Below are positions 4,363-64,000 of a stretch of DNA of 64,000 bases, one piece after another; positions within the stretch are counted from its first letter, which is position 1, and every line of letters begins with the position of its first letter. A program made the position numbers and the translations under genes. The stretch is from Acidobacteriota bacterium (GTDB lineage Bacteria > Acidobacteriota > UBA6911), in NCBI GenBank assembly GCA_016933615.1, contig JAFGAO010000140.1, forward strand, positions 5,320 through 69,319, in the 5' to 3' direction. The notes under the pieces were generated by a model, which saw only the letters and a program-made list of their open reading frames with translations, had not been told where the DNA came from and ran no database searches.

Positions 4363-5526
4363 CTATTTCTTAAGAATTTCTCCCTGCCACAGTGCCTTCA
4401 GAAAATCACGTACGGGTAAAACATGCACCCCCCCTTCCCTCAAAACTCTGTCGCCGAGATAGATGCCGTAGGCCCGGGAAATCATCCCGGCCGTCACGGC
4501 CCGGTGCAGGGCTGAGGAATACTTCCGTTGCCAGACGGAAGCGCTTTTTATCTCGATCCCGATGTTCGCGTCCCCACGGGTCCATATGAAATCGATCTCG
4601 ACGCCCGCCGGAGTGCGCCAATAAGTGATTTCCCCTCCAACTCCCAGGTACATCATCGCCGATCGCAGTTCATGCAGAAGCAGCGTTTCCATCAGCGAGC
4701 CCTTCTCGAAATCGGCCAATGATTCCCTCAACCGGTTTGACAGGACCCGGACCACCCCGGTGTCGAAAAAATAGAACTTGGCCCGGTTCGCCTCTCTTAC
4801 CTTTGCCCGTGGCCGCCATCCCGGCACCCAGATTCCCACCAGGGTATCCACAAGCGTTTCAAAGTAACGCTGGACGGTCGTGCGCGCCACGCCGGCATCC
4901 CGGGCAATCCCTGCGACATTGACAACTTGTCCGTTCATCATAGCCGCGATCTTCAAAAATCGGCCGAAAGAACCAAGATCTTTGACCAGGGCTTCCTGCT
5001 GTATCTCCTCCCTGATGTATGTGCCGGCATAGGCCTCGAGAAGATCCACGGCCAGTTCAGATTTTTGATGGATTGCGGGAAGCATGCCAATGGATAAAAG
5101 CTCTAATATGTTCCCGGGAAAGCCCAATTCCCTTGAGGTTAGAGGAAACATACGCCGCTCGATCACCCTTCCCGCAAGAAGATCCGCATCCATTCTGCGG
5201 AGTTTCCGGGCGCTCGAACCGCTAATGGCAAAGCGATACGCGTCTCCATGAATTGAGATAAGGTCGTGAACCTCCCGCAACAAGGAAGGGAGTCGCTGCA
5301 CTTCGTCGATAACCACCCAGTCCCCGGGGGATCGGGCCTCGACGGCGCCACGAAACAGTTCGGGATTTTGAAGCAGCGGAAGATACTCGCGATCCAGGAT
5401 AAGATTGAACCAGAGAGCGTCTCCGAGATTTTCACGCAGCCAGGTGGTTTTTCCCGTGCTTCGCGGACCGAACAGAAAGAAGGAATGATTCGGAATCAGA
5501 AGATTTCTTGCATACATAGCGGGCAT
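4363..5526 (-). CDS. AAA_14 ATPase with DUF4143 domain (start may be ATG at 5517)
   Basis: Walker A GPRSTGKTT, Walker B VIDEVQ, SGSS motif, KFYFFDTG, C-terminal EIDF...IEIKS (PD-(D/E)xK-like). Confidence 0.9.
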   Translation of the reverse strand: MPAMYARNLLIPNHSFFLFGPRSTGKTTWLRENLGDALWFNLILDREYLPLLQNPELFRGAVEARSPGDWVVIDEVQRLPSLLREVHDLISIHGDAYRFAISGSSARKLRRMDADLLAGRVIERRMFPLTSRELGFPGNILELLSIGMLPAIHQKSELAVDLLEAYAGTYIREEIQQEALVKDLGSFGRFLKIAAMMNGQVVNVAGIARDAGVARTTVQRYFETLVDTLVGIWVPGWRPRAKVREANRAKFYFFDTGVVRVLSNRLRESLADFEKGSLMETLLLHELRSAMMYLGVGGEITYWRTPAGVEIDFIWTRGDANIGIEIKSASVWQRKYSSALHRAVTAGMISRAYGIYLGDRVLREGGVHVLPVRDFLKALWQGEILKK

Positions 5527-52127: not shown

Positions 52128-53405
52128 ATGTTTTCACGCCGGATTGAAAAGAAATTATTGAAAACATTGGAAGATTTTCGCTGCGTAGCCCTGACGGGCG
52201 CCCGTCAGGTCGGGAAAAGCTATCTTCTCAGCCGAATCTGCCGGGATCAGGAGGGCATATACCGGACCCTCGATGACCCAAGGGTGCTTGAGGAGGCCAA
52301 TTCGGACCCGGTGGGTTGGCTGCGGCACAATCGCAGGCGAGGCAAACTTCTGGTTATCGACGAAGCGGCCAAATCTCCCCGGATTTTTTCGGCCGTCAAA
52401 GTGATTGTCGATGAGGAAGATCCCGTACCGACAAAGATCCTGCTTTCCAGCAGCGGCAACTATCTCCTGATGAGGCGAATAAAAGAATCCCTCGCCGGAA
52501 GGATTGGCCTGGTCTATCTCTACCCTCTCTCGTGGAGTGAAATCGGCGACGGTGTTCCCTCCCGTATTTCAAAACTCGCCGAACCGGATTCCATCCAGAC
52601 CGGTTCGGTTCCCGGCATGAGCGCGATTGAAATCGACAGAAGCCGTGAAAATATACTCACCTTCGGAGGATTTCCGGAAATTCAGGAGAAGTCGGATGCC
52701 GGATTCTTAAGGGAGTGGTCGAACCAATACTTCAATACCTACATCCTGCCGATGGCCGTTGAATTCTTCAGTGTAAGCAAGCAACACGCCTTTCAGAAGG
52801 TTTTTTACCAGATGTGTCTTCGAACATCCAATCTGCTCAATTACAGCGATGTAGCCGGACCAAGCGGCATCAGTTCGGTGACGGTAAAAAATTACATCGA
52901 ATACTTTACCGCAATGATGATCTGCTTCGAACTGCCCCAGTTCTACCTGAATCCGATCAAAAGACTCGTCAAGTCCCCGAAGATACACATCATTGATCCA
53001 ATCCTTGTTAACACCGGTTTCGGCAATGTCGGCAGCCTGACGCTGCAAAAAAACACCGGGGCGATAGGACAGCTCTACGAGTCATGGATTGTGTCGGAAT
53101 TGATAAAATGCGCCCATTACGAATCCATTTTCCCCGACTTCTTCACCTGGCGTACCCAGGACGGGGCCGAAGTGGACCTGGTTTTGAGACTTCAGGGACA
53201 TTACGTGCCGATCGAAATAAAATACAAAAAAAGGCTGAGCAAAAGGGATTTATCGGGATTACGGTCCTGGTTTGAAGTACACGATTCCGAGACTCCGGCC
53301 GCCTATATCGTCTACCCGGGAAACAAATTTTATCGGCTCTCCGGGAAGATCTGGGCCTTGCCGGATTTTCTTCTACTGGGAGCGTTCGACAGCCGGCGCA
53401 CCTGA
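52128..53405 (+). CDS. AAA_14 ATPase with DUF4143 domain (second copy)
   Basis: GARQVGKS, VIDEA, SSSG, KRLVKSPK, RTQDGAEVD...IEIK. Confidence 0.9.
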   Translation: MFSRRIEKKLLKTLEDFRCVALTGARQVGKSYLLSRICRDQEGIYRTLDDPRVLEEANSDPVGWLRHNRRRGKLLVIDEAAKSPRIFSAVKVIVDEEDPVPTKILLSSSGNYLLMRRIKESLAGRIGLVYLYPLSWSEIGDGVPSRISKLAEPDSIQTGSVPGMSAIEIDRSRENILTFGGFPEIQEKSDAGFLREWSNQYFNTYILPMAVEFFSVSKQHAFQKVFYQMCLRTSNLLNYSDVAGPSGISSVTVKNYIEYFTAMMICFELPQFYLNPIKRLVKSPKIHIIDPILVNTGFGNVGSLTLQKNTGAIGQLYESWIVSELIKCAHYESIFPDFFTWRTQDGAEVDLVLRLQGHYVPIEIKYKKRLSKRDLSGLRSWFEVHDSETPAAYIVYPGNKFYRLSGKIWALPDFLLLGAFDSRRT

Positions 53406-57971: not shown

Positions 57972-58973
57972 CTAATTATTCGGCTCTTCGCTTTCATCCG
58001 CCCGGTTGAGCGGGGCGCCGCAGGCAATTGCACTGACCATCGCCGAATAATTCGACCTTGTCGGATAGGGGAAGCTCTCCGCGCTTTCCGTCTCTGATTC
58101 CGGGTCCATATCGGACATGGGAACCGGCTCCATGGTATCGAGGTACTCCCTGGCAGTCCGCAGGACCTCCTCCGCTCCGGGAGAAGCCTCGATTTCGACA
58201 ACCGTGTCCTTGTGCCAACCGCCCAGAACCTCTTCGGACAGCGCTTCATAATCCCTTTGACCGATCGCGTGCCTGTCGTAATCGCCGACAGGCAATCCGT
58301 GATCCACGGTCTCCCTGAGCCGGATATTGTAGCGGATGACCGTGTGGAACACCTTGTCTTCAAATTTCTCCCGGACCCTCTCGAGCACTTCCTGGGAATA
58401 GCGCGTCCTTGCGTCGAACATGGTTACAAGCGCCCGGGGCGTAACTTCATGGCCGGATGCGTTTTTGATCATGACCATCATATCCGTCAGCTTGGCAATC
58501 CCCCGGAGGGAAAAGAGGCTCATGTCGATGGGCAGGATCGCCTCAGAAGCGGCGCGGAGGGCATTGAAGCTCAGGTGCCCGATGCTGGGCGGACAATCGA
58601 CGATTATGAAATCGAAGGGTTTCTCCAGGCGCGCGATCGCCTCCAGGAGCCTTTTTTCCCTGCCGTCCACGAGCGCCAACTCCTGCTCCACGGCGCACAG
58701 CAGCGTGTCCGACGGCGCGATGTCGAAATTCTCCTTGACCGGAACGACGACATCGTCGAGCCCTACCCGGCCCGTTTGCGTCGGAGAAACCGCATGATAT
58801 ATGTTCTGCTCCGGGTCGCAGTCTATGTTAAGCCCCATCGTGGCGTGGGACTGGGGGTCAAAGTCGATCAGTAGCACCTTTTGCCCTTTCGATGCCAGAC
58901 AAGACGAAAGATTGATGGCCGTGGTGGTTTTTCCGCATCCTCCCTTTTGATTCGCAACCGCAATGATTCGCAT
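57972..58973 (-). CDS. ParA/Soj family ATPase with acidic C-terminal extension
   Basis: Deviant Walker A KGGCGKTT, IDFDPQS, IVDCPP, IRYNIRLRE. Confidence 0.93.
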   Translation of the reverse strand: MRIIAVANQKGGCGKTTTAINLSSCLASKGQKVLLIDFDPQSHATMGLNIDCDPEQNIYHAVSPTQTGRVGLDDVVVPVKENFDIAPSDTLLCAVEQELALVDGREKRLLEAIARLEKPFDFIIVDCPPSIGHLSFNALRAASEAILPIDMSLFSLRGIAKLTDMMVMIKNASGHEVTPRALVTMFDARTRYSQEVLERVREKFEDKVFHTVIRYNIRLRETVDHGLPVGDYDRHAIGQRDYEALSEEVLGGWHKDTVVEIEASPGAEEVLRTAREYLDTMEPVPMSDMDPESETESAESFPYPTRSNYSAMVSAIACGAPLNRADESEEPNN

Positions 58974-59059
58974 TCAATCTCCTTTCCCGCTTTCCGCTTT
59001 TATGAAACAAAAACCTTTAATGGACAACAACGAGAGCAATCCGACGCCGGCTTCTCGCT

Positions 59060-59671
59060 CTACGCTTCAGGTGAAATCTCCCATGCGCGCTCAAAGAGAA
59101 TCCCGCATTCCCCCGGCATGGCTACAACGCGGAATGCAACGCAGCAGACTTCCGGGGACGTGCTGCGCCGGGCGACACATTTGAGCAAAGGTGAAAAACC
59201 GGGGGCGACAAGAAACAACCGCGGCCGGGCGGAAAAGTTTATCGCGCGCCCCCTGTACATGCGCCTGACAATCGGCGTATTGCGCACGATCCAGTCCGAA
59301 TATGCAATGCCCAGGAGAAGCGATTCGTCCTTCCGGGCCACATCGACGTTCACGATGCAAAGCCGGTCCCGGCTGTCGACGGCCACCAAATCGATGCAGC
59401 CGAACGGGGCGCAGGGTATGTTTTCATCTATCGCGTACAAGCCGTCCTCGAGAACGGCCGCATTCCCTTTTAAAAATCCCAGGACCAACTCCCGGCCGAC
59501 AGCCGGAGAGTCGTGCAATAGAAAAGGAGTCCCGGATGGAGCCCGTTCGGATGGAGCTTTTACCGGCGGGATGCCGGTAATTTCCGCTTTTTCAGCCGGT
59601 TTGTCGGCCGATTGCGTTAGAAACAGGCGAGATAAATCTTCCAACCCCCGGGAGAGCCGCTTTTCCGTCAA
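59060..59671 (-). CDS. Hypothetical ParA-associated protein: N-terminal LSRGLEDL peptide, low-complexity linker, degenerate PD-(D/E)xK/NucS-like domain
   Basis: Probable TTG start at 59671 (track start 59794). GCIDLVAVD...RLCIV...RLFLVAP. Confidence 0.6.
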   Translation of the reverse strand: MTEKRLSRGLEDLSRLFLTQSADKPAEKAEITGIPPVKAPSERAPSGTPFLLHDSPAVGRELVLGFLKGNAAVLEDGLYAIDENIPCAPFGCIDLVAVDSRDRLCIVNVDVARKDESLLLGIAYSDWIVRNTPIVRRMYRGRAINFSARPRLFLVAPGFSPLLKCVARRSTSPEVCCVAFRVVAMPGECGILFERAWEISPEA

Positions 59672-60189
59672 ACGGCTCTCTTGGGCGGAGTCTTCAACCG
59701 GTTTGTTTCGCTGCAGGTCCAAGTTATTAAAAGTAAGCGTATTAGCGCAAAAAATGGGTTTCAAACGGCGGTTATTCGCTTCGAATTCAATCACGGAATC
59801 GCCGGCATTTAATGTGGCATTTCCCTCTATTGCCGCTCTATGGATCCACTTTCCAATGCCGGTTCCATCTTATCAATAAAATCGGCAAAAACAACTATTT
59901 GTTGGGGGAAATATTTTTTATGCCCCAATATGTCGTGGTAATTGGCAATCTGAAAGAGTAGAGGGAACGGAGCTGGATTTCAATGAATGTTTCCCGCGGA
60001 AGGATGATCCCCGGCGCCGCGGCCGACCGGCCGGAACAGGGGGGTCGACAACGATGCCGCGCGGCTTTCTTTGAAAGAGGGCGGCCCACCCTTCCGAAAA
60101 CGGCGCAGCGAAAGGACACCGGCAATGTTCTTGGTTCAAACCCGTATGCCGGTTTCTGCCGTTTTCAAGGAATTACCGCTGCGAAGCGA

Positions 60190-61122
60190 TTATTCGACTG
60201 CAAAAGCGCCCAGGTGAACGACACGGTCATCGACCACAAGTGCGGCCCCGGTCAGATTTTTCCCCGAAAGGCGGACATCTTTCCCTTCGCCGACCGCGTC
60301 GAACTCTTCCTTTCCGGCTTCGACGATGGACTCCAAAAACGCAGCGACATCCTGCGGGGTGCAAGCCGCTTCTTCCCCGGGCCGATCCCCCGCACCCCGG
60401 TCAATCGCATCAAGGCCGTAGCCGTGCAAAAGCTTTGGAAAGAGCTTCTTCAGAGTTTCGGACGAGTCGAACAGGTCCAGCCCGACTATCTTTCCATTAA
60501 TCGCAAACAGCGCACCCGACTGCCCTGCAAGGGATGAAAAGCAACGGGAATAATCCTCGAGCCCGGCCTTCGCATGATTGTAAATATCGCGCACGGCGGA
60601 TGTGTCCGAGAAAACGCCGAACCTCGAAGACTTCTCGGCGATATCGCGCCACACCCGTACCTGATCCGAGTCCCTGCGGCCAGCGGAATGCAGCGAGTTG
60701 CTGACCTGGGCCATCTTCCGGGCGCGCCCTTCGGCGAAATAGGCGCTTTCGGATGATGAAAAGCCTGCGCTGGTGTGACGCCACCGGCCCGCTTCCACGC
60801 AGGAAACCGGGATGATCACGACTTTGCCGCCCGCCACCAGGATACTGAGATTGAGCACCCGGTTCTGCTTCGCTCCGATCAGCTGCTCGCCGTCGAGCAG
60901 GAAAACCGGCTGAGAGCCGGAATTGACGAATTTCAGTTCAGGCACGCTTCCCCCTTCGCTGACCTCCGTCACCTCGGAGCATTTCCGCTCGAGCGCCTCA
61001 TCCAGGGTCAGGTAATCCGTCCCCTTCAAATCGATTCCAAACAGGGGGAAAACCGTCAGGTTCCTGTAAGACGCCGGCTCGCCGACACGGATATTTTTTA
61101 CTACATCACGGATCCATTCCAT
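60190..61122 (-). CDS. ARPP-1 (DUF6569) family protein
   Basis: GGSVPEL...LLDGEQLIGAKQNRVLN...IPVSCVEAGRW, QVRVW, FPKLLHGYGLDA. Confidence 0.8.
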   Translation of the reverse strand: MEWIRDVVKNIRVGEPASYRNLTVFPLFGIDLKGTDYLTLDEALERKCSEVTEVSEGGSVPELKFVNSGSQPVFLLDGEQLIGAKQNRVLNLSILVAGGKVVIIPVSCVEAGRWRHTSAGFSSSESAYFAEGRARKMAQVSNSLHSAGRRDSDQVRVWRDIAEKSSRFGVFSDTSAVRDIYNHAKAGLEDYSRCFSSLAGQSGALFAINGKIVGLDLFDSSETLKKLFPKLLHGYGLDAIDRGAGDRPGEEAACTPQDVAAFLESIVEAGKEEFDAVGEGKDVRLSGKNLTGAALVVDDRVVHLGAFAVE

Positions 61123-61282
61123 AATCCCTCCCGGTCTGTGTGGAACCAGAGTTCAATGATTTTAAAATCGCGGTCCTGCTGCAAGAATGTATGAATTATA
61201 TCAAGGATTTTTGATAAATTAAGGGTGTTTTATCGTAACCGGAGAAAGAATGGTCCGCTGTTAACCCGATATAAGAAATCTC

Positions 61283-64000
61283 ATGAACAATCTACCGGAC
61301 AATCCGGGAGACCCGGAACGGCTGCGCGAGAAATACGGGCGGTTGCTGCGTGAATACGAACGCATAAAAGCTGAAAACAGGCGCCTCAAAGAACGGTTCG
61401 GGCTTGGAGAATCTGACAATGCCGCAAATTTCGCACCCGGATTGAAGCAGGGGAAAAACAGCCCTGATGCGGAAACAATCGACGATATCCCCAATTCGAT
61501 CATATCCAACACATCCGATTCGTCTGAAAAAATCAGGTTGTACATGACTCTTTTTAAAGGCCGGGACGATGTGTACGCCAGGAGGTGGGAGAACAGGAAG
61601 AAAGGAACATCCGGATATTCACCCGTATGCCTGAACGAATGGGTTCCCGGAATATGCGCCAAACCGGAATCTTCCTGTTCCCGGTGCACCCAAAAATCCT
61701 ATGCCGTCCTCGATGAGGCTGTGATCGAAAACCACCTGAGAGGAAACATTGTCGCCGGCATTTACCCCCTTTTCCCGGATGAAACCTGCTGGTTTTTAGC
61801 GATCGATTTCGACGAAGCGGACTGGCAAAAGGACATCCATGCACTGAGAGGGGTTTGTGCGGAATATGCAATTCCTTATGCCGTGGAACGATCCCGGTCC
61901 GGCACAGGCGGCCACATCTGGTTTTTCTTTGAAAATCGGATACCGGCGGCCCTGGCAAGAAAGCTCGGAACCGCGCTCCTGACATATTCCATGAACAGAC
62001 GGCACGAGATCCGATTCCAATCCTACGACCGCCTTTTCCCCAGCCAGGACACGCTTCCCAAAGGCGGTTTCGGGAACCTGATCGCCCTTCCACTGCAAAA
62101 AGCCGCGAGGGAGAACAACAACAGCGAATTCGTGGATGAAAATTTCCGCTCCTATCCCGACCAATGGGCGTTTCTGTCCACTGTCCGGAAGCTTTCCGAA
62201 GAAAGCGTCGAACATCTGATATCGAAGCTCTGCGCCGGTCAGGAACTGGGGGAACTTAAAATCGACCCTGAAGAGGATGACGGGGAAAAGGGAAAACCCT
62301 GGGAAATCAGAAAAACCCCGATCTCCAGAAACGACTTCCCCGGCCGGATTGAAATTGTCCGCGCAAATATGCTCTTTGTCCCGAAGGCCGGAATCTCCCA
62401 AAGGGGGCTCAATCACATAAAGAGGCTGGCATCTTTCAAGAACCCGATGTTTTTCAGACAACAGGCCATGCGCCTGTCGACATACGGACATCCCAGGGTC
62501 ATCTCGTGCGCGGACGAAACCGAAGACTATCTATGCCTGCCGAGAGGGTGCGGGGAGGATCTGTCGAAGGAACTCGGGGAGCTTGGAATCCGTTATCTGT
62601 TCACGGATAAAACCTGGGCCGGCAGAAGCATCGATGTGGAATTCAGGGGGGAGCTTAGAGAGGAGCAATCCCTGGCGCTTCAACAACTGCTGCGGCACGA
62701 AACCGGCATACTTTCAGGAACAACCGCTTTCGGGAAAACAGTTGTGGCCCTCAAGCTGATCGCCGAAAGAAAAGTCAACACGCTCATCCTGGTCGACAAG
62801 GTCAGCCTGCTTTCGCAATGGAAAAAGAAGATTTCCGAGTTCCTGATTATAAATGAAACGCCGGCGGATCCGGCCGAAAGCGCCGGCAAGAAACGCGGAA
62901 GAAAAAAGCAAACGGACCGGGTGGGCCAGCTCGGAGCGGGACGAAACACGCTGAGCGGCATAGTGGACATTGCGGTCATGCAGTCATTGAGCAGGAAGGG
63001 GGAGGTCAGGGATTGCATACGGGACTACGGGATGATCGTGCCCGATGAATGCCATCACGCATCCGCCTTCACCTATGAAAGCATCCTGAAATCCGCCCGG
63101 GCGAAATACATCTGCGGGCTGACCGCCACACCGACTCGCAAGGACGGGCACCATCCGATTTTCTTCATGCACTGCGGCCCCATACGGTACCGGGACAATC
63201 CTCAGAAACAGGCTGCACAAAGGCCATTCGACCATTTTGTCGTCCCGCGTTTTACGTCCTTAAGAATTCCGCCGGGAACCGAGGAAAGGGAAGTTTCCAT
63301 TCAGGATTTGTACTCCGAAATTATCGACAGTGAAATCCGGAACCGACAGATCGTGGACGATGTCCTTGCAAATTACGAACTCGGCAGAAACTGCATCGTT
63401 CTCTCCCTGCGCACCGCGCATGTCGAGAAACTTGCCGTTACTTTGCGCGAATCGGTTCCCGATTCGGACGTCATCACCCTGACGGGAGGGATGGGGGCGA
63501 AAACAACACGGGAAGTCTTGGAGCGCATCTCCGATATCCCCGAGGAAAGGAAGATGATACTGGTGGCCACCGGCCATTTCATAGGGGAAGGCTTCGACGA
63601 ACCGCGCCTCGACACGCTGTTTCTCACCATGCCGATATCGTGGAAAGGCACCCTGCAGCAATATGCAGGGCGCCTCCATCGCCTGTACCGAAACAAAAAG
63701 GAGGTCCGCATTTACGATTATGTCGATGTACAGGTAGGCATGCTGGAAAGAATGTACCGGAGACGGCTCAACGGGTATGCCGCGATGGGTTACAAGGCCA
63801 AAGGGGAAGACCTTCCGTCGGCTCCGATGGACATCATTTATAATCGTGACAGCTTTTTGCCGGTTTTCATCAACGATATGGCCGCCGCACAAAGGCAAAT
63901 TCTGATCGTGAGCCCTTTTGTCAGAAGGAGACGCGCCTTGCAGATGTTGCAGCAGCTGAAGACCGCGATATCCGGCAATGTGCGTGTTGTCGTCGTTACC
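61283..64000 (+). CDS. TOTE-type archaeo-eukaryotic primase plus SF2 helicase plus start of a PLD-like domain (3'-truncated by window edge)
   Basis: Open frame from ATG 61283, not in the ORF track. LFKGRDDVYA, AIDFD, ERSRSGTGGHIW, GGFGNLIALPLQ, AFGKT, DECHH, GLTATP, EGFD, QYAGRLHR, LIVSPF. Confidence 0.9.
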   Translation, partial: MNNLPDNPGDPERLREKYGRLLREYERIKAENRRLKERFGLGESDNAANFAPGLKQGKNSPDAETIDDIPNSIISNTSDSSEKIRLYMTLFKGRDDVYARRWENRKKGTSGYSPVCLNEWVPGICAKPESSCSRCTQKSYAVLDEAVIENHLRGNIVAGIYPLFPDETCWFLAIDFDEADWQKDIHALRGVCAEYAIPYAVERSRSGTGGHIWFFFENRIPAALARKLGTALLTYSMNRRHEIRFQSYDRLFPSQDTLPKGGFGNLIALPLQKAARENNNSEFVDENFRSYPDQWAFLSTVRKLSEESVEHLISKLCAGQELGELKIDPEEDDGEKGKPWEIRKTPISRNDFPGRIEIVRANMLFVPKAGISQRGLNHIKRLASFKNPMFFRQQAMRLSTYGHPRVISCADETEDYLCLPRGCGEDLSKELGELGIRYLFTDKTWAGRSIDVEFRGELREEQSLALQQLLRHETGILSGTTAFGKTVVALKLIAERKVNTLILVDKVSLLSQWKKKISEFLIINETPADPAESAGKKRGRKKQTDRVGQLGAGRNTLSGIVDIAVMQSLSRKGEVRDCIRDYGMIVPDECHHASAFTYESILKSARAKYICGLTATPTRKDGHHPIFFMHCGPIRYRDNPQKQAAQRPFDHFVVPRFTSLRIPPGTEEREVSIQDLYSEIIDSEIRNRQIVDDVLANYELGRNCIVLSLRTAHVEKLAVTLRESVPDSDVITLTGGMGAKTTREVLERISDIPEERKMILVATGHFIGEGFDEPRLDTLFLTMPISWKGTLQQYAGRLHRLYRNKKEVRIYDYVDVQVGMLERMYRRRLNGYAAMGYKAKGEDLPSAPMDIIYNRDSFLPVFINDMAAAQRQILIVSPFVRRRRALQMLQQLKTAISGNVRVVVVT

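Follow-up and report, generated by a model that had tools for sequence, protein, structure and literature searches.

A predicted PLD-tipped member of the IEE family beside an orphan ARPP-1 gene in an Acidobacteriota genome

Introduction

Do two genes that stand head to head in a bacterial genome make up one system, or are they neighbours by accident? The question is raised by the end of a 64,000-nucleotide stretch of DNA from an Acidobacteriota bacterium (assembly GCA_016933615.1, contig JAFGAO010000140.1, positions 5,320 to 69,319 of the forward strand), hereafter the window. An ARPP-1 gene is located there divergently from a long open reading frame (ORF), hereafter the fusion gene, in which an AEP primase-like domain, an SF2 helicase and a PLD-like domain follow one another. 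A sequence-only reading of the window, made without database searches, had proposed the pair as a candidate conflict module. We conclude that these are probably two unrelated accessory genes side by side in a rearrangement-prone slot, one for an IEE-PLD enzyme and the other for an orphan ARPP-1.

The source genome is a metagenome-assembled genome (MAG), 82% complete and in 298 contigs. The window (G000:C97:5320-69319 in our numbering) is part of contig C97, which is 70,249 bp long and runs 930 bp past the window end. Positions in this last part are given as window equivalents.

Architecture of the fusion protein

The fusion ORF extends from 61283 to 64000 on the forward strand and is open to the window end with 906 codons, as the sequence-only reading had described. 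In the contig it is complete. It ends at 64243, 243 bp beyond the window, with a stop codon at 64241-64243, and encodes 986 aa. The earlier assignment of primase-like, helicase and PLD domains agreed with the Pfam matches, which were AEP-TOTE, ResIII/DEAD (residues 457-619), Helicase_C (690-801) and PLDc_2 (863-983). The predicted segments of the gene are as follows.

61283..64000, continuing to 64243, forward strand: IEE-family AEP-helicase-PLD fusion gene (ORF and Pfam; architecture common to the homologues)
61283..61525, forward strand: N-terminal ~81 residues, Arg/Glu-rich and coiled-coil-like, poorly conserved, with no IEE counterpart
61526..62215, forward strand: AEP-TOTE Prim-Pol domain, residues 82-311 (PF22548, 339 bits, E 1.4e-101; Pfam cut-off 27)
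62216..62644, forward strand: conserved linker, residues 312-454, collinear with IEE residues ~279-420 (mean column identity 0.67)
62645..63802, forward strand: XPB/Rad25-like SF2 helicase or translocase, residues 455-840 (ResIII, DEAD and Helicase_C in Pfam)
63869..64000, forward strand: start of a PLD-like single-HKD nuclease domain, residues 863-983 (PLDc_2, E 2.2e-10), with the HKD motif at 64103-64156

Conservation of residues was computed over the best 120 homologues of the fusion protein. The AEP catalytic residues D175 and D177 (motif A), H211 (motif B) and D249 (motif C) were 100% conserved in this set. The helicase motifs were also invariant (Walker A K485, DECH 588-591, TATP 614 and, as arginine finger, motif VI R797). 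The sequence-only reading had suggested that the downstream contig be searched for an HKD motif, and a canonical one was found there: the stretch HQKFAIMDEKVIWYGSIN reads H941-x-K943-x4-D948-x6-G955-S956-x-N958, and the pattern HxKx4Dx6GSxN was kept in at least 98% of the 120 homologues. The N-terminal segment had a mean column identity of 0.34 compared with 0.62-0.75 in the other segments.

The solved structure most similar in sequence to the AEP core was that of the Marinitoga CRISPR-associated Prim-Pol (CAPP; PDB 7NQD, E 1.9e-8), and the AEP domain also matched the PADLOC model for CRISPR-associated PrimPol (3.8e-93). For the motor the nearest solved structure was archaeal XPBII/Rad25 (6P4F, E 1.3e-19), and a further match was to a type IV restriction enzyme-like helicase (7CLG). 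PADLOC matches of the PLD region were to MkoC, MkoB, DrmC and DpdK.

Relationship to IEE

A six-frame search of the Escherichia coli O157:H7 Sakai chromosome with the fusion protein gave a single match (E 8.4e-204, residues 79-839). The match was ECs_1305, annotated as 'IS-excision enhancer IEE', within the element SpLE1. The two proteins were 43% identical over 761 aa by BLASTP, with an alignment that began at fusion residue 80 and covered residues 47-776 of the 786 in IEE. On PF22548, IEE scored 329 bits (1.7e-98) and the fusion 339 bits (1.4e-101). The catalytic residues of IEE, D142, D144, H178, D216, K451 and R735 (Calvo et al. 2023, PMC9943667), aligned to D175, D177, H211, D249, K485 and R797 of the fusion, respectively. 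Because residues 80-838 align with IEE end to end, the catalytic residues are kept and the Pfam model is shared, the fusion is, as judged from its sequence, a PLD-tipped member of the large, catalogued IEE / AEP-TOTE family.

IEE has been studied genetically and biochemically. It synthesises DNA in an error-prone, Mn2+-dependent manner in which primer and template become dislocated, and it joins 3' overhangs that share 4 bp of homology or more, for which both of its domains are needed (PMC9943667). Genetically it promotes excision of IS629, and the reported properties include MMEJ activity and enhanced excision of IS3-family elements (PMC9943667, where Kusumoto 2011 is cited for IEE). The sequence-only reading had stated that no functional description was known. 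This holds for the pairing, but not for the fusion, whose core is a full-length homologue of the studied IEE.

The PLD-tipped form is abundant, and we found no study of it in the literature. In a word-indexed search with the fusion protein 8,000 candidates were scored and almost all were significant. The best 120 were 65-83% identical and 930-1,011 aa long (all but one at least 969 aa), came from Acidobacteriota, Desulfobacterota and other MAGs, and had the same Pfam domains except for one 930-aa protein without PLDc_2. On a 7.66-Mb contig (locus L036, 3868-9922) a DDE_Tnp_1 transposase gene and an AbiEi-AbiEii pair immediately precede a homologue of the fusion with 66% identity. This was the only relative that showed a DDE transposase directly upstream of the fusion homologue.

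ARPP-1 and its usual partners

The ARPP-1 gene and the gap between the two genes were as the sequence-only reading had placed them, head to head across 160 bp.

60190..61122, reverse strand: orphan ARPP-1 (DUF6569) gene, intact, 310 aa (PF20208, E 7e-100)
61123..61282, no strand: divergent intergenic region of exactly 160 bp between the start codons of ARPP-1 and the fusion

Q86, C108, E110, R113 and W114 of ARPP-1 were among 80 positions that are at least 98% conserved in 117 homologues. Judged by their profiles, ARPP-1 and the fusion are both strong matches, which excludes chance ORFs. The earlier statement that both domain types have been connected with biological conflict on computational grounds was likewise correct, the AEP domain through the TOTE family and ARPP-1 through the ARPP systems (PMC9503650). 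Those systems that are centred on an ADP-ribosylglycohydrolase (ARG) are predicted to counter viral ADP-ribosylation, and ARPP-1 is proposed to act on, or to cross-link to, ribose moieties (Iyer, Burroughs, Anantharaman, Aravind 2022, PMC9503650).

To look for such partners, the larger ORFs between 49 kb and the fusion gene were scanned with Pfam, a range that ends before the 687-bp tail of the contig. No ARG or R-P phosphatase gene was found adjacent to ARPP-1 at the locus, and no WYL, NrtR, HIRAN or deacetylase partner was found among the scanned neighbours. ARPP-1 is here an intact orphan copy.

The expected layout was found in a related MAG, JARRLM01 (locus L021), in which a 71%-identical ARPP-1 gene lies 82 bp downstream of a gene for a 511-aa protein with ADP-ribosylglycohydrolase and DSP-phosphatase parts. 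This is the canonical ARG-phosphatase-ARPP layout of Iyer et al. 2022 (PMC9503650). Another locus (L028; G090:C81, 5511-8402, forward strand) has all three components, ARPP-1, a DSP-type phosphatase and ADP-ribosylglycohydrolase, in a single frame of 964 aa. In the source genome a 225-aa ORF on contig C105 (11976-12650, forward strand) matched the JARRLM01 ARG-phosphatase protein in its phosphatase half only (E 4.7e-95). The ARG half had no counterpart in the source genome, whose sole ARG gene is on contig C18. It seems that the canonical system has been broken up and scattered in this genome, or that the MAG is incomplete. Other close ARPP-1 homologues were next to WYL-WCX (a WYL partner is present in locus L029), XRE-M78 peptidase, SDR and housekeeping genes, and none was next to an AEP gene.

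Conservation of the gene pair

Conservation of the pairing, which the sequence-only reading had named as the check that could refute its proposal, was examined in 23 related loci. Seventeen were from GTDB genomes, in which ARPP-1 was sought by tblastn, and six were Pfam-annotated contexts of fusion homologues at 66-83% identity. No ARPP-1 relative was found in any of them (0/17 and 0/6, 0/23 in all).

The two genes were also sought in an identical draw of 401 genomes of the phylum. AEP-TOTE was present in 58 and ARPP-1 in 101; 12 had both, compared with 14.6 expected if the genes were independent. In the 11 other genomes with both, the two were either split between contigs or separated by 62 kb to 3.7 Mb, and only in the source genome were they adjacent. 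JARRLM01, the closest MAG with both, has the fusion (83% identity) and ARPP-1 (71%) on different contigs. Genome G316 was the one ambiguous case; at its contig ends no overlap hid an ARPP-1/fusion junction, and the fusion there has a different coding region on its upstream side. G220, of the same genus as the source genome, has the fusion and no ARPP-1. The G220 copy was set aside as a case of synteny, as it is only 67% identical over 414 bp and in a different context.

Since the pairing was absent from the 23 related loci and from the 11 co-occurring genomes, a two-gene module is not supported, and the result went against the candidate module of the sequence-only reading. ARPP-1 is a chance neighbour of the fusion; the pair is not a system and the pairing is a local accident.

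Synteny and variable slots

In two relatives, an Acidobacteria MAG (L004) and a metagenome contig (L034), both flanks and the fusion are common to the window at 81-85% nucleotide identity (blastn). The shared layout consists of a ParA-like gene with a gene of unknown function, a variable slot, the fusion, a second variable slot and a conserved flank. The first slot holds VapBC and an AAA_14-DUF4143 ATPase gene in L004 and the AAA_14-DUF4143 ATPase gene alone in L034. The window has the following features in and to the left of this slot.

52128..53405, forward strand: AAA_14-DUF4143 ATPase gene (Pfam AAA_14 and DUF4143), 84.5% nucleotide identity to L004:6409-7756
57972..59794, reverse strand: ParA-like ATPase gene (57972-58973, 333 aa; ParA by Pfam and NCBIfam) and gene of unknown function (59060-59794, 244 aa)
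59969..61265, no strand: ARPP-1 cassette of 1.3 kb without counterpart in L004 or L034 (blastn blocks end at ~59953-59968 and resume at 61266-61283)
59989..60112, forward strand: relic of the 3' end of a PIN-domain gene, 124 bp, 74% nucleotide identity to L003:10085-10207 inside a PIN ORF

The ParA-like gene and its partner, whose 244-aa product had no family match, were ~85% identical to L004:2450-4475 and L034:3509-5527 at the nucleotide level. They are the conserved left flank and not part of a module with ARPP-1. On the other side of the cassette, homology to the fusion loci of the relatives began only 17-26 bp upstream of the fusion ATG, and therefore the upstream region of the fusion is new in the source genome. 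Promoter and terminator consensus hits in this DNA were not above shuffled-sequence expectation.

Both slots contain remains of other genes. The PIN relic, just downstream of ARPP-1, is a rearrangement scar; the PIN ORF of L003 that it resembles comes after an M78-peptidase gene. In the second slot, 3' of the fusion, there is a relic of a DUF4143 gene (64329-64500; L002:9649-9820) which consists of the upstream region and ~15 initial codons, with ATT in place of ATG, and which is 75% identical to L034:5803-5905. It is followed by a fragment that, from its translation only, reads like the C-terminus of a BrnT-type toxin. The same slot in the relatives (L004:11014-14509, L034:10969-12426) carries a PRiA4_ORF3 gene (plasmid pRiA4b ORF-3-like); L004 has, in addition, another AAA_14-DUF4143 gene and a fragment of a protein kinase there. 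None of these is present here, where only 250 bp are left. This second slot is littered with the remains of broken cassettes.

No direct or inverted repeats bounding the ARPP-1 segment were found by repeat search. Rfam (E up to 0.1) and tRNA scans of the 10-kb locus gave nothing, and a scan for tandem and CRISPR repeats from 40 to 64 kb was empty. The GC content is 53.3% in the fusion, 50.9% in the AAA_14-DUF4143 gene and 58.4% in ARPP-1, with a genome value of 57.6%. These differences are a weak but consistent indication of separate histories of the genes.

A recurrent neighbour, AAA_14-DUF4143

When the neighbours were clustered over all loci, a single family recurred, an ATPase of the AAA_14-DUF4143 type encoded directly upstream of the fusion on the same strand. 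It was found in 6 of the 23 loci (L004, L005, L012, L013, L034 and L041), which span Acidobacteriota and Desulfobacterota including Desulfonema and Smithellaceae. The gap to the fusion is 7 bp in L041, where the copy is split, and 51 bp in L034. The phylum sample showed the same arrangement in at least 6 of ~38 IEE-like places (G070, G080, G151, G162, G183 and G270; the count is a lower bound), and ~0.03 would be expected by chance given ~3.2 DUF4143 copies per genome.

L004:6409-7756 is the gene that abuts the fusion in L004, and its orthologue in the window is ~8 kb away from the fusion. Because the window gene is 84.5% identical to that gene, we consider that the partner was retained and displaced by 8 kb through rearrangement, a history which is supported by the PIN and DUF4143 relics. 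At least 11 DUF4143-domain genes were observed in the source genome, two in the window (4543-5010, reverse strand, and 52764-53225, forward strand) and nine at other contig positions. This multi-copy family behaves like island cargo. DUF4143 has been classed as PD-(D/E)xK/REase-related (PMC3424549; preprint 10.64898/2026.10.19.760177), and it is plausible that the DUF4143 protein is a facultative loader, sensor or second nuclease for the fusion.

Discussion

The sequences show the architecture, the intact motifs, the homology to IEE, a pairing that is not conserved, and the synteny and scars of the locus, whereas the biochemical activities and the biological role of the fusion are inferred. 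By homology to IEE, the motor would load on single-stranded or forked DNA ends, and the AEP domain would perform Mn2+-dependent, template-slipping DNA synthesis and microhomology-mediated bridging of ends. The PLD tail would add cutting or end-trimming. Single-HKD proteins of the PLD superfamily (Nuc/BfiI-type) act as dimers, and the tail would have to pair with a second HKD copy for an active site. The fusion may then be a dimeric enzyme that translocates on, or unwinds, ends or forks while the PLD domain trims or cleaves and the AEP domain fills or bridges. Its substrates could be transposon-excision intermediates or invading or replicating foreign DNA, and it could act alone or with the AAA_14-DUF4143 ATPase/REase-like protein, its only recurrent neighbour. 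The most likely function by analogy is thus the processing of ends or forks in mobile or invading DNA, and as its net role we give roughly equal weight to repair or excision and to defence. ARPP-1 in this lineage occupies the slot that holds a DUF4143 gene in the syntenic relatives.

Several points weigh against this reading of an IEE-PLD enzyme next to an unrelated orphan gene. IEE is without the PLD tail and the N-terminal 80 residues, and its activities may not transfer fully; those proposed for the PLD-tipped form derive from homology to IEE, whose own role in vivo may be IS excision or a broader one. The lack of an ARG partner, and the placement of the phosphatase on a different contig, may be effects of gaps or binning in an 82% complete MAG of 298 contigs. 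Nuclease and helicase effectors are part of some published ARPP systems (PMC9503650). The 160-bp divergent control region is common to both genes, and they may be co-regulated in the source genome.

Among the alternatives, the one that survives best is that the AAA_14-DUF4143 ATPase and the IEE-PLD protein constitute an obligate two-component system, in which an ATPase/REase-like sensor or loader serves an effector and the copy in the window has been crippled or rewired by the move of its partner to 8 kb away. The same-strand association is far above chance and crosses phyla, only 7 bp (L041) or 51 bp (L034) may separate the two genes, an orthologue of the ATPase gene has been kept nearby, and DUF4143 is related to PD-(D/E)xK/REase proteins. 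On the other side, only ~15-30% of family members have AAA_14-DUF4143, many intact homologues are without the ATPase, E. coli IEE among them, and DUF4143 is itself multi-copy island cargo (11 in the source genome), with a split copy in L041. An obligate system of this kind is doubtful. A functional pair of the two proteins is likewise only a tentative proposal, and one that is clearly not obligate across the family. In a less radical version of the module idea, AAA_14-DUF4143 and IEE-PLD would form an undescribed two-gene system and ARPP-1 would be one of several swappable upstream 'heads'.

It is improbable that an integrated plasmid-like element has the fusion as its replicative primase-helicase, with the ParA-like protein as its partition ATPase and PRiA4_ORF3 as a plasmid gene. 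AEP-helicase fusions are indeed common as replicases of mobile elements (PMC8211822, PMC11724360), three genomes have kept ParA with its partner next to the fusion, both L004 and L034 have PRiA4_ORF3 downstream of it, and IEE is located in the integrative element SpLE1. However, the motor is XPB-like SF2 and not a hexameric SF3/SF4/DnaB-type replicative helicase, and a PLD nuclease tail would be unexpected in a replicase. No integrase, replication origin, tRNA or terminal repeats were found, and the close homologues are solitary in unrelated chromosomal contexts. No replicative role has been reported for IEE (PMC9943667).

A recently assembled module in which ARPP-1 senses or modifies ribose or DNA-end lesions and the fusion is the effector, a stripped-down variant of the ARG-centred ARPP systems with nuclease-helicase effectors, is very unlikely: it would suit the head-to-head order over a shared divergent promoter region in a 160-bp gap, the intactness of both genes with all conserved residues, and a close ARPP-1 homologue that adjoins an RNase_H_2-containing 615-aa gene with a Helicase_C gene ~3.2 kb upstream, but the pair is unique to the source genome (0/23 loci, 0/11 co-occurring genomes), co-occurrence is slightly below independence (12 against 14.6), the syntenic relatives hold other genes in the slot, the GC content of the genes differs, and the nearest ARPP-1 homologue is in a canonical ARG-phosphatase operon elsewhere. 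There is little probability, too, for its boldest form, in which ARPP-1 has been newly wired to the fusion through the 160-bp control region as a minimal sensor-effector pair, detects adducts of the ribose or abasic type on the ends of DNA and passes these on to an unwind-cut-fill enzyme.

The PLD-tipped form would bring a polymerase, a motor and a nuclease together in one chain, and the IEE family to which it belongs is very widespread (more than 8,000 proteins sharing words). The cross-phylum association with AAA_14-DUF4143 points to a concrete candidate partner. For how bacteria manage transposons and invaders, it matters whether mobile DNA is excised and repaired by such enzymes or attacked by them.

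Comparison with known systems

TOTE stands for TPR, OB, TBP and Effector (Aravind, Iyer et al. 2022, as cited in PMC12458937). The AEP domain of the fusion belongs to the family named after these conflict systems (PF22548). A TPR-OB/CSD fusion gene was not found, as no TPR or CSD/S1 domain was detected when the larger ORFs between 49 kb and the fusion gene, short of the 687-bp downstream tail, were scanned with Pfam, nor did TPR-OB/CSD genes occur beside the close fusion homologues in the annotated contexts. For a TBP homologue, PF00352 gave no match in the whole genome (82% complete), and controls responded in 4 archaea. Since the locus has no TPR-OB/CSD or TBP gene and the genome no TBP, this is a solo effector-type protein with a TOTE-type AEP and not a canonical TOTE operon.

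CAPP of the 'CAPP-helicase' type (PDB 7NQD/7NQF) has a homologous AEP catalytic core. The fusion was rejected as a CAPP, as it reached 103 bits on the NCBIfam CAPP model against a cut-off of 200 and had no CRISPR-Cas operon context. No cas domains were found among the Pfam-scanned neighbours and no CRISPR array in 40-64 kb. Non-CRISPR relatives of CAPP mostly have a helicase domain and are found in mobile elements (Zabrady et al. 2021, PMC8211822). AgaPP (PMC11724360) was also rejected as the closest known enzyme; it is a different Prim-Pol, and its DUF3987 helicase is separate.

The defence-system search that the sequence-only reading had recommended did not assign the locus to a system. PADLOC gave domain-level matches only for the fusion (PrimPol, PbeA, MkoC/MkoB, mREase_IV and DrmC), with no full-length system match with partners, and ARPP-1 had no PADLOC, NCBIfam or PDB match. 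SauUSI (PDB 7CLG), Mokosh MkoB/MkoC and DISARM DrmC resemble the fusion at the domain level in their SF2 motor and single-HKD PLD nuclease. Their domain order is different and they are without a polymerase. Membership in these systems was rejected, since the matches are partial only. By analogy, a 'translocate and cut' logic is plausible for the SF2 motor and PLD domain of the fusion.

With respect to the ARG-centred ARPP systems, the ARPP-1 of the window is a full-length member with the conserved Cys (C108) and Gln (Q86), but the locus lacks ARG, the phosphatase and any WYL or NrtR regulator.

IEE of E. coli O157:H7 (ECs_1305 / Z1568) is among the closest known systems. The fusion differs from it in ~80 extra N-terminal residues and a C-terminal PLD/HKD domain of ~145 residues, both absent from IEE. 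The gene neighbours are also different, as IEE comes after a DUF3987 gene in SpLE1. In E. coli, IEE co-occurs with IS629/IS3-type transposases in 94.75%, and the fragmented MAG studied here under-represents IS copies. The likeness lies in the same AEP-TOTE domain and in the collinear order of AEP, linker and SF2 helicase. Both are accessory genes of patchy distribution located in mobile or variable DNA.

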